Positions 14,130-15,453 of a stretch of DNA of 32,000 bases are shown one piece after another; within the stretch, counting starts at the first letter, position 1; each line of letters starts with the position of its first letter. The stretch is from contig CAVOKO010000012.1 of assembly GCA_963696525.1 (NCBI GenBank), positions 1,024,275-1,056,274 of the forward strand. Direction: 5' to 3'. The notes below the pieces were generated by a model. The model was not told where the DNA came from. It made no database searches and worked only from the letters and a program-made list of their open reading frames with translations. Made by a program: the position numbers and the translations under genes. Source of the stretch: an uncultured Acidobacteriota bacterium. GTDB lineage: Bacteria; Acidobacteriota; Terriglobia; Terriglobales; Acidobacteriaceae.

Positions 14130-14405
14130 TTATCCGCAATCGCAGCTTACGCATTCACCGTTCTTGCCGCGCATGCTATTAATAATAGCCGCCGCGCAGC
14201 CTACTCCGGCAGAGACTTCGATTGCTTTCGTCGCGCAGTTCATACGGCAGGCTCCGCACTCCATGCAATCTTCGCGGTTGGCGATCACAGCTTTCCGTTC
14301 GACGACCGCAAACACCGCGTGCGGGCAGACTTCCTCGCAACGGCCGCAGCCGTTACAGAGCACCGCATCCAGGACGAGCGAGTGACCATTCAGAAGATAG
14401 CGCAT
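14130..14405 (-). CDS. hgcB: HgcB, 2[4Fe-4S] ferredoxin of the mercury-methylation pair
   Basis: 91 aa; CNGCGRCEEVCPH plus CMECGACRMNC (HgcB signature CMECGAC), conserved GVGCAAA downstream and Cys-rich C-terminus ECVSCDCG. Begins 10 bp after hgcA. Confidence 0.93.
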   Translation of the reverse strand: MRYLLNGHSLVLDAVLCNGCGRCEEVCPHAVFAVVERKAVIANREDCMECGACRMNCATKAIEVSAGVGCAAAIINSMRGKNGECVSCDCG

Positions 14406-14415
14406 AGTGTTCCCT

Positions 14416-15453
14416 CTAAACGAACGCCGCGGTAATTCGAAGAACCGCTCCCGCTGCCGCAGAGACTAAGATCGGCGGCAACGCTCGCCGGACTTCCAAC
14501 TTTGCCCCAGCCTGGGTGGTGAAGGTCGTGGACCCGGTGAACATCATCGCCATGTACGAAGTGATTGCCACTACAAGAAGGACGACTCCGGCTGCTTCGG
14601 TAAATCCCATCGGAAGCAAAACCAGCAGGCTCGCTGCTAACAGTACGCCTGCAACCGTTCCCTTTAGCGCGAAGTACCTGAATGGGAGCCATGGAAGCAA
14701 TACTGGAACGAGAAGCCCACCCGTAAGAATGGCGGCTACAAAGGGCAGGAGGTCCGTGGCGAGATGCGGCGTCAACTGGTGGTGACGTATCACGTCGAGA
14801 ATAGCCAGCAGCACGAGCGCCACAAGCGCGAGTTTGAGCTGACCAACAATTTCCACGGGCGCGAGAACGATGCGCTCTCTCCAAGTGAAGGTTACGCGCC
14901 GCATGGTCGGCGTGGTCTTCATGCCCGCAGCCAGATAGGCTTTGATGTCGTACGCCCGAACAGGTCCGTAGTGGACTGAGAAGCCGGTAGCGCGCTTCAC
15001 CTCGTGAGCAGCCACTCCCGTAGCGCCGAGCTGCGGGAGCACGAGATCGCGATGCCCCACAACCTTTTTCAGATTGATGGCCTGGATGCGGTGGACGAGT
15101 TCGTCGGTGCCGAAAGTTCCCTTGCCAGCGGCGCACCACACGTTAACGCCTTTGGTATCGAGAATCAGCAACCAGACGTTCGCGCCGACCAACTCTTTTC
15201 GGACCCGGTCAACAGTCAGCTTGTAGTTGGCAGTGACCAGCACGGATGAGTTTGCGTCCGGCTGTCCGATGCGGTATAGCCCCGGTGCGACCCGATATCG
15301 CATGCGCCCGATGCCCCAACGCACTTTCCAGCCGCCGAGCACGTCGCGCCAGGTGATCTGTGTGCTCAGTGAGCCGATGAACGGGTCCGCTGGCGCTTTC
15401 GCCGGGGAGATCTGGCACGGTGTCGGACCACAGCCGCAACCTGTTTGGGTCAT
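14416..15453 (-). CDS. hgcA: HgcA, corrinoid protein of mercury methylation
   Basis: 345 aa; VLVTANYKLTVDRVRKEL...ANVWLLILDTKGVNVWCAAGKGTFGTDELVHRI contains the diagnostic cap-helix motif NVWCAAGK. C-terminal half holds about five hydrophobic helices. RBS AAGGAG upstream of ATG. Confidence 0.95.
   Translation of the reverse strand: MTQTGCGCGPTPCQISPAKAPADPFIGSLSTQITWRDVLGGWKVRWGIGRMRYRVAPGLYRIGQPDANSSVLVTANYKLTVDRVRKELVGANVWLLILDTKGVNVWCAAGKGTFGTDELVHRIQAINLKKVVGHRDLVLPQLGATGVAAHEVKRATGFSVHYGPVRAYDIKAYLAAGMKTTPTMRRVTFTWRERIVLAPVEIVGQLKLALVALVLLAILDVIRHHQLTPHLATDLLPFVAAILTGGLLVPVLLPWLPFRYFALKGTVAGVLLAASLLVLLPMGFTEAAGVVLLVVAITSYMAMMFTGSTTFTTQAGAKLEVRRALPPILVSAAAGAVLRITAAFV

Follow-up and report, generated by a model that had tools for sequence, protein, structure and literature searches.

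A probable hgcAB operon beside an arsenic-resistance operon in a Korobacteraceae-like acidobacterium

Do two adjacent minus-strand genes in an uncultured acidobacterium encode HgcA and HgcB, the corrinoid protein and the ferredoxin of microbial mercury methylation, and what might such a pair be doing next to genes for arsenic resistance? The question is raised by a 32,000-nucleotide stretch of contig CAVOKO010000012.1 (assembly GCA_963696525.1, positions 1,024,275 to 1,056,274), referred to here as the window, which an earlier note, made from the letters alone, had described as carrying hgcAB in a probable acidobacterial genome. The locus is considered highly likely to be a true hgcAB orthologue, an intact operon carried by a Korobacteraceae-like acidobacterium of the Terriglobales. 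The evidence for this identification is set out first, followed by the genetic surroundings of the pair, its host and relatives, and the alternative explanations.

Identity and architecture of the gene pair

The product of the larger gene was matched by the NCBIfam equivalog model for HgcA (NF040863) over profile positions 3 - 324 of 325, with a score of 422.7 bits against a cutoff of 275 (E = 9.1e-127). It fell far short of the model for the gamma subunit (CdhE/AcsC) of the corrinoid iron-sulphur protein (CFeSP) of the acetyl-CoA pathway, at 69.3 bits against a cutoff of 306 with only profile positions 323 - 446 of 450 aligned, and the model for fused HgcAB-like proteins (NF043039, cutoff 285) gave 213.8 bits for HgcA and 50.8 bits for HgcB, both below threshold. 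The fused proteins, such as that of Pyrococcus furiosus, which shows no mercury methylation in culture, have the cap helix, transmembrane domain and ferredoxin motifs in common with the pair in the window, which differs from them in consisting of two separate genes. The single Pfam match of HgcA was to CdhD (residues 54 - 172), and a sequence search of the PDB returned CFeSP large subunits only, the entry for a model of HgcAB surfacing solely in a fold search.

The residues by which HgcA is recognised are all present. Residues 104 - 119 read NVWCAAGKGTFGTDEL and include the cap-helix motif NVWCAAGK (residues 104 - 111, with Cys107), which was found in 82 of the 86 HgcA sequences compared, that of the window included. 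The "high stringency" criteria used by the community ask for NVWCAAGK in HgcA and C(M/I)ECGA in HgcB on the same contig, the cap-helix pattern being N[V/I]WC[A/S][A/G/S]GK with its conserved cysteine corresponding to Cys93 in strain ND132 (Pseudodesulfovibrio mercurii / Desulfovibrio desulfuricans; DND132_1056/1057), the source of the experimentally characterised founding pair. Both motifs occur here, CMECGA at residues 47 - 52 of an HgcB whose gene adjoins hgcA. In the PDB alignments Cys107 stands opposite Thr375 of 4djd_C and Thr374 of 2h9a_A, and the replacement of this threonine by cysteine is the defining trait of HgcA relative to CFeSP.

The protein is made up of a disordered N-terminal arm (residues 1 - 27, with Cys6, Cys8 and Cys13), a corrinoid-binding domain (approximately 28 - 185) that contains the cap helix (105 - 111) and a transmembrane region (191 - 344), and hydropathy likewise places membrane segments across residues 195 - 345. 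An AlphaFold2 model (predicted local distance difference test, pLDDT, 83.8; predicted template-modelling score 0.73) shows an alpha/beta corrinoid-binding domain with residues 105 - 111 helical and five long helices, predicted to span the membrane at 191 - 224, 230 - 255, 261 - 279, 284 - 303 and 314 - 344, which bears out the earlier note's description of a multi-helix membrane domain and a cysteine in the cap helix. Foldseek placed first the integrative ND132 HgcAB model, 9a0b_A, to which identity was 43% across 325 columns (E = 8e-21), and next the C-terminal corrinoid domains of CFeSP (root-mean-square deviation 1.5 Å over 124 columns). The CFeSP large subunits (AcsC/CdhE; 2H9A, 2YCL, 4DJD) share with HgcA the Rossmann-like corrinoid domain and cap helix at 23 - 29% identity, but they have Thr374/375 in place of Cys107, carry an N-terminal [4Fe-4S] domain and a TIM barrel, and lack a membrane domain. 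Distances over the corrinoid domain were 0.2 - 0.5 to HgcA sequences and 1.5 - 1.9 to CFeSP, and a corrinoid-domain tree rooted on two CFeSP fragments split the two families cleanly; clustering with CFeSP, which the earlier note had named as grounds for abandoning the identification, was not what was found.

The N-terminal arm merits separate mention. Its first 21 residues have pLDDT values below 50. Across 76 members of the clade, Cys6 and Cys8 show at least 90% conservation within the consensus MxxxSCGCG; one 92%-identical relative has Cys-Cys in place of Cys-x-Cys. The arm corresponds to the N-terminal extension with Cys-Cys or Cys-Sec described by Haft, and differs in its Cys-x-Cys from that of ND132, which is proposed to hold Cys-Sec. 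A hidden selenocysteine-containing extension of the window HgcA was considered and rejected: the nearest in-frame upstream stop codon, a TGA 23 codons before the ATG, follows Leu rather than Cys and lies within the AT-rich promoter/operator, and the annotated N-terminus already has its cysteine motif.

The smaller gene encodes a ferredoxin matched by Pfam Fer4 families. Its two CX2CX2CX3C cluster motifs comprise Cys17/20/23/27, followed by proline, and Cys47/50/53/57, followed by alanine, a residue found at that position in 30 of 84 compared HgcB sequences. Residues 17 - 29 read CNGCGRCEEVCPH, CMECGACRMNC occupies residues 47 - 57, GVGCAAA residues 67 - 73 and CVSCDCG residues 85 - 91, so that every motif quoted in the earlier note has been located in the two translations. 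Cys70, 13 residues past Cys57, is the equivalent of Cys73 in ND132. The window pair resembles that of ND132 in its adjacent genes, its five transmembrane helices, the two [4Fe-4S] motifs and Cys73 equivalent of HgcB, the 43% identity to 9a0b_A and an adjoining ArsR-family regulator.

Both reading frames are intact and, with the spacer between them, were confirmed as first described (Table 1). The stop codon of hgcA is overlapped by a ribosome-binding-like AGAGGGA, and the sequence suggests that the two genes probably form one operon with translational coupling; in 24 listed related loci hgcB nearly always lies 1 - 18 bp downstream of hgcA or overlaps it. An identical 345-aa HgcA and 91-aa HgcB, with the same neighbours, are encoded in five other contigs, two from ENA and three from Logan assemblies, each from a different sample or run. 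The pair, which sits in a contig of 1,107,422 bp, is no assembly artefact, since the same proteins and neighbours recur in these five other assemblies, where the cysteine and the membrane architecture, whose loss in a corrected assembly would have counted against the earlier note, are likewise retained.

Table 1. Coordinates of the hgcAB genes and the divergent ars operon within the window (strand as read in the window).
Feature	Coordinates	Strand	Description	Basis
hgcA	14416..15453	-	345 aa, ATG start; corrinoid-binding, membrane-anchored methyltransferase subunit (predicted)	Open reading frame list, NF040863
hgcB	14130..14405	-	91 aa, ATG start; ferredoxin subunit, two [4Fe-4S] cluster motifs	Open reading frame list, NF040864
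hgcA-hgcB spacer	14406..14415	-	10 bp	Sequence read
arsR/hgcA control region	15454..15565		112 bp, divergent; conserved core ~15509-15537, CATACATATNCGNNTTGACATATATGT	Promoter scan, inverted repeat, conservation
arsR	15566..15976	+	136 aa from ATG (open reading frame lister: TTG at 15551); ArsR/SmtB metalloregulator, divergent from hgcAB	NF033788, Pfam HTH_5
acr3	15973..17073	+	Arsenite efflux permease; 4-bp overlap with arsR stop codon	TIGR00832, 467.3 bits (cutoff 282.8)
arsC	17070..17480	+	Arsenate reductase, thioredoxin-coupled low-molecular-weight phosphatase type; last operon gene	Pfam LMWPc

The ars operon and the shared control region

Divergent from hgcAB is an operon for arsenic resistance. 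Its regulator scored 89.3 bits against NF033788 (cutoff 55), is called as a 136-aa protein in other assemblies and has SmtB and ArsR proteins as its relatives in the PDB. The protein carries in its alpha-3 segment the "CVC" pair Cys34/Cys36 (EVCVCYF) typical of ArsR that senses As(III), and in the ArsR of E. coli a Cys32/Cys34 pair suffices. The subfamily of the arsenate reductase is approximate because its score against TIGR02691, 131.2 bits, lies below the cutoff of 174.3.

Between the two transcription units a sigma-70-like promoter is predicted to face hgcA (TTGACA at 15523 - 15518, a 17-bp spacing and TATTCT at 15500 - 15495, with 10 of 12 positions matched), a weaker one is predicted towards arsR (15517 - 15544), and a 10-bp inverted repeat (15511 - 15520 / 15525 - 15534) overlaps both; the promoter scan returned three sites where 0.8 were expected. 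An AAGGAG ribosome-binding site precedes hgcA, and no convincing intrinsic terminator was found after hgcB, all four matches of the scan lying inside coding sequence. The core CATACATATNCGNNTTGACATATATGT is kept in loci whose HgcA is only 74 - 75% identical (72 - 75% nucleotide identity), whilst its surroundings diverge, and in two of these loci unrelated insertions of 250 - 300 bp stand between the core and hgcA. Such conservation makes the core a candidate ArsR operator, and co-regulation of hgcAB with the ars operon may be inferred: ArsR would most probably bind the palindromic core overlapping both promoters, and hgcAB would then belong to the same arsenic-responsive regulon as arsR-acr3-arsC.

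The insertions themselves have coding capacity. That in locus L001 (5777 - 5959) encodes a 60-aa cysteine-rich peptide (CGFCCG...SSCCGV) starting at a ribosome-binding site homologous to that of hgcA in the window, and tblastn searches of the fetched loci and the window gave matches to it at chance level only. The insertion in L094 (9754 - 9981) and L095 (8342 - 8569) holds a 75-aa open reading frame unrelated to the L001 peptide.

Links between arsenic regulators and hgcAB have been described before. In ND132 hgcAB is under the control of an arsenic-responsive, ArsR-like protein, and of 31 confirmed methylators 14 have an arsR gene no more than three open reading frames upstream of hgcA. The ArsR2 of ND132, however, is co-directional, has an atypical four-cysteine site and has no ars genes nearby, whereas that of the window is divergent, has the CVC pair and heads an acr3-arsC operon. 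Most Bryobacterales members of the acidobacterial clade itself (L002 - L011) carry not a divergent arsR but a MarR-like regulator that is co-directional with hgcA and contains a CCGVT motif, apparently the "putative regulator" of McDaniel et al. This regulator is of about 165 aa, lies some 500 bp upstream of hgcA (for example at 5504 - 6004 in L007) and has the motif E(T/D)xCCGVTLxQCH.

Host, relatives and changing context

The eleven nearest HgcA matches among species representatives comprise nine metagenome-assembled genomes (MAGs) of Acidobacteriota (Bryobacterales, Solibacteraceae and unclassified; 59 - 75% identity), together with one Myxococcales MAG and a contig of 3.3 kb labelled "Gemmataceae", and the next tier, at about 50% identity, belongs to Bacillota, Spirochaetota and Desulfobacterota. 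In an unrooted neighbour-joining tree of full-length sequences the acidobacterial clade was recovered in 100 of 100 bootstraps; in the rooted tree of the corrinoid domain it was recovered in 23 of 50. On these sequences the clade is Acidobacteriota-dominated. As to the host, the flanking hydantoinase, RraA-like and permease proteins fall in 90%-identity clusters with members that NCBI names "Candidatus Korobacteraceae bacterium", and the flanks are 89 - 90% identical at the DNA level to contigs assigned to Korobacteraceae, a family of the Terriglobales (Terriglobia, Acidobacteriota) that includes Candidatus Sulfotelmatobacter. The assignment of the host rests on the NCBI names given to the proteins of relatives rather than on marker genes; within that scope the earlier note's "probable Acidobacteriota" holds, the flanking proteins being at least 90% identical to those of Korobacteraceae. 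The order of the host accordingly appears to be Terriglobales, whereas most of the HgcA clade is found in Bryobacterales.

The published acidobacterial MAGs with hgcAB (Bryobacterales, Solibacteraceae and "Acidobacteria bacterium"; PMC7438021; NCBI HgcA P0024 and P0055) belong to the same clade, at 59 - 75% identity, and are like the window in their short-tailed 91-aa HgcB ending in CxC, in the "SCGCG" of the HgcA N-terminus and, in L001 and L094 - L096, in a divergent arsR-acr3-arsC. They differ in their hosts, that of the window being Korobacteraceae-like (Terriglobales) rather than Bryobacterales, and in the MarR-like regulator of L002 - L011.

A number of comparisons show that the surroundings of the pair vary. 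A locus with a 92%-identical HgcA (L092) has in common with the window only positions 14114 - 15962 (hgcB-hgcA-arsR, 1.85 kb), at 88.8% nucleotide identity. That locus continues past arsR (18 - 2539) with an aminotransferase and, about 2.2 kb from the unit, a phage-type integrase and a reverse transcriptase of group II intron type, and has neither acr3 nor arsC; the integrase and reverse transcriptase hint at how the cassette may move. In L001 and L094 - L096 the arrangement arsC-acr3-arsR/hgcAB is common to all and the flanks are different again. In Korobacteraceae relatives about 90% identical to the window, homology spans the hydantoinase and RraA genes and ends 127 bp short of the hgcB end, at position 14003; farther on, these relatives carry dehydrogenase and sensor-kinase genes instead. 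The junction of the pair with the flanking RraA and major facilitator superfamily (MFS) genes recurs in independent assemblies. No compositional signal of an island was detected, the G+C content and third-codon-position G+C of the hgcAB and ars genes matching those of the flanks, so that no hint of a recent transfer comes from composition, and the case for mobility rests on synteny. On that comparison of loci arsR-hgcAB behaves as a compact accessory module that moves horizontally and is found in differing contexts.

Other differences were observed close to the pair. An MFS transporter of D-galactonate type (11728 - 13310) is replaced by about 136 bp in the 89 - 90% identical relatives L086 - L091, a second insertion or deletion beside the hgcAB junction. 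In L094 (2468 - 7205) and L095 (1056 - 5793) genes for a TonB-dependent receptor, a Peripla_BP_2 (BtuF-like) protein and a radical SAM protein adjoin arsC-acr3-arsR/hgcAB, a set that may link corrinoid or metal uptake to hgcAB.

Several further features lie elsewhere in the window. A class I fumarate hydratase of two subunits, an oxygen-sensitive Fe-S enzyme (28999 - 30599, minus strand), fits a partly anaerobic host and is not diagnostic of one. A fluoride riboswitch aptamer (RF01734; 26173 - 26235, plus strand; E = 1.3e-8; 42.2 bits, with the gathering score at 34) lies after cheB and before genes for an AAA/STAND-like ATPase (26332 - 27096) and a dynamin-like GTPase, an unusual set to find downstream; no crcB or eriC fluoride exporter was found in the window, and there is no clear terminator past the aptamer. 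At least two genes, both on the plus strand, appear frameshifted. A methyl-accepting chemotaxis protein (21603 - 23145) is split into 21603 - 22022 (4HB_MCP) and 21973 - 23145 (HAMP and MCPsignal) with a 50-bp overlap, probably by a frameshift inside the che operon (18330 - 26086). The dynamin-like GTPase (27120 - 28900) is divided into overlapping parts, 27120 - 27674 and 27581 - 28900, of which the part with the P-loop matches CrfC/DynA models and the second has a Dynamin_N tail; a frameshift is probable, whether from a sequencing error or in a pseudogene, and the exact product of the second reading frame was not in the protein collection. In view of these two genes sequence errors elsewhere in the window are plausible.

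Function, alternatives and significance

If the pair works as that of ND132 does, HgcA would bind a corrinoid in its cytoplasmic Rossmann-like domain, where Cys107, placed at the beginning of the cap helix, would serve as lower axial ("Cys-on") ligand, and five helices would anchor the protein in the membrane. The two [4Fe-4S] clusters of HgcB would reduce the cobalt to Co(I), which would then take up a methyl group, the donor used by ND132 HgcAB being S-adenosylmethionine. Transfer would be to Hg(II) held by thiols, namely Cys85, Cys88 and Cys90 of the HgcB tail together with Cys70 and probably Cys6 and Cys8 of HgcA, and the end product would be methylmercury. Purified HgcAB of ND132 has been found to carry out a two-step methylation dependent on S-adenosylmethionine, with ligation of cobalt by thiolate. 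The sequence comparisons show the identity of the genes, their domain architecture, conserved residues and operon structure, the conserved control region, the clade, the host and the variable surroundings; from the likeness to the characterised family members we infer corrinoid binding and mercury methylation for the window pair.

A number of observations weigh against this, the first of them concerning HgcB. Its score against NF040864 was 98.2 bits (E = 1.8e-28, profile positions 1 - 86 of 93), 0.8 bit under the curated cutoff of 99, so that the profile check proposed in the earlier note came out clearly for HgcA and just short for HgcB. The tail has Cys85, Cys88 and Cys90 and lacks the terminal Cys-Cys, which according to Haft forms the final two residues of "nearly every" HgcB; the claim that the pair shows every hallmark therefore stands for the motifs and fails for the C-terminus. 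In ND132, which differs from the window in this respect, a double mutant of Cys94 and Cys95 of HgcB loses 95% of activity, although either cysteine alone suffices. Beyond the proteins themselves, no acidobacterial isolate confirmed as a methylator was found in the literature searched, McDaniel et al. (2020; PMC7438021) detected no Acidobacteria hgcA transcripts in Stordalen permafrost though rpoB transcripts were detected, and the abundance and expression of hgcAB are poor predictors of methylation. Neither a corrinoid supply nor an anaerobic lifestyle is evident from the window.

The tail can be placed in the context of the clade. The window HgcB ends in CVSCDCG, and about five further residues ending in Cys-Cys, present in most HgcB, are missing; the unmatched profile positions, 87 - 93, are those of the Cys-Cys tail. 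The score falls below the cutoff because these last positions are left unmatched by a short tail, and the sequence points to the structure of the tail rather than to decay. Eight HgcB proteins of clade mates scored between 93.2 and 102 bits, four of them below 99 and one at exactly 99, whereas two from Firmicutes that end in SCDCSGGECC scored 126 and 133. Ten of the eleven nearest species-representative relatives (L001 - L011) have an HgcB of 91 - 92 aa in which one or two residues follow a final CxC, and the C-terminal CxC is found in 11 of the 12 lineages formed by these and the window. From these comparisons the NF040864 cutoff is marginal for the whole acidobacterial clade, and the short tail is to be regarded as a trait of that clade. 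A tail with at least one C-terminal cysteine, as required in ND132, is present in the window HgcB, and its CxC may or may not stand in for the terminal Cys-Cys. In L005, a Bryobacteraceae MAG, the HgcB (approximately 6998 - 7357) is of 119 aa with an aberrant cysteine-free C-terminus, probably the result of a frameshift or read-through.

An important consideration is whether a true hgcAB orthologue need have mercury methylation as its native job. The pair may instead serve in the handling of arsenic or other metalloids, or in the reductive dehalogenation of halomethanes, methylation being a side reaction at most, and this is a possibility of some substance, albeit an unlikely one. Consistent with it are the tight linkage to an As(III)-type arsR and to acr3-arsC through a shared conserved control region, the keeping of arsR-hgcAB as a unit, the regulation of hgcAB in ND132 by arsenic and S-adenosylhomocysteine rather than by mercury, the greater sensitivity of the ND132 knockout to As(V), and a 2026 preprint that reports dechlorination of CCl4 by heterologously expressed HgcAB. 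However, no arsenic chemistry has been demonstrated for HgcAB, the claim for dehalogenation comes from that single preprint, and most members of the clade (L002 - L011) have the MarR-like regulator and not ars genes. Such a role would moreover be compatible with mercury methylation, as every tested organism with this architecture methylates mercury, and a native role elsewhere would not conflict with the identification of the genes as hgcAB.

More speculative, and doubtful at present, is the suggestion that the HgcAB of Acidobacteriota is a distinct functional variant, with CxC in both metal-handling arms in place of Cys-Cys or Cys-Sec, which in the sub-lineage of the window is tied to a canonical As(III)-sensing ArsR in a mobile cassette of arsR and hgcAB. 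If this tie to ArsR reflects function, the locus would be an arsenic-induced module for the methylation or detoxification of metals and metalloids, and if the suggestion is true the cassette would spread among the abundant Acidobacteriota of peat and soil and make of them condition-dependent producers of methylmercury.

It is improbable that the pair, although homologous, does not methylate mercury in practice, either because its short-tailed HgcB is impaired or because the operon is silent in nature. The sub-cutoff score with its unmatched final positions, the near-universal Cys-Cys and the activity lost by its double mutant would all agree with an impaired HgcB, as the missing transcripts at Stordalen would with a silent operon, and the fused HgcAB-like proteins have the motifs yet do not methylate. 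Yet the tail keeps three cysteines and a CxC conserved throughout nearly all of the clade, one C-terminal cysteine is enough in ND132, and hgcA and hgcB are here separate and unfused. Conservation of 90% or more in the 76 clade members, both for Cys6 and Cys8 of HgcA and for every catalytic residue, speaks for purifying selection.

That the pair is real but not acidobacterial, because the contig is chimeric or its taxonomic label mistaken, is very improbable. Two of the eleven nearest species representatives do bear other labels, and the host was called from protein names, but the genes lie inside a contig of more than a megabase, the RraA/MFS junction is reproduced independently, the flanks are close at the DNA level to Korobacteraceae contigs and composition is uniform across the window. 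The identification of the larger gene as a CFeSP (AcsC/CdhE), to which its sole Pfam and PDB sequence matches might point, is refuted by a model score far below cutoff with a match confined to the C-terminal 120 - 130 residues of CFeSP, by the missing N-terminal Fe-S and TIM-barrel domains, by Cys107 in place of threonine, by the five transmembrane helices and by the distances, and no acetyl-CoA pathway genes occur in the window.

The reading of the locus as a genuine acidobacterial hgcAB operon thus has to be set against what is already known of such operons. The earlier note held that a carrier outside Desulfobacterota, Firmicutes and methanogens would be environmentally significant, but the novelty that this implies is not supported: McDaniel et al. 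(2020; PMC7438021) had already reported hgcA-bearing Acidobacteria MAGs, interphylum transfer of this clade and hgcAB beside acr3, arsC and arsR, and later surveys count Acidobacteriota among the predominant putative methylators. Members of the clade are already named HgcA by NCBI. The family occupies little sequence space, 452 clusters matching at E <= 1e-30 out of 1.84 billion representatives at 50% identity, and it is heavily sampled, with at least 7977 90%-identity clusters at E <= 1e-20, the best of them at 94% identity. In the literature searched, no report was found that connects hgcA with Korobacteraceae, Sulfotelmatobacter or Terriglobia. Well supported as it is, the window pair, in an acidobacterium of soil or peat, is an ordinary addition to a group known from metagenomes since 2020, and it leaves the picture of potential mercury methylators unchanged. 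What is new is modest, namely the apparent compact mobile unit of arsR and hgcAB with its conserved, operator-like promoter region, to which the short-tailed CxC variant of HgcB would be a modest addition.

Methylmercury is made only by carriers of hgcAB, and to foresee where the toxin is formed one needs to know in which abundant lineages of soil and peat the pair is functional. The window adds a well-assembled carrier from a Korobacteraceae-like acidobacterium, a family abundant in peat and wetland soils. With hgcAB and an arsenic-resistance operon set on one conserved control region, the proposed regulatory link between arsenic and hgcAB becomes testable outside the Desulfovibrionaceae.

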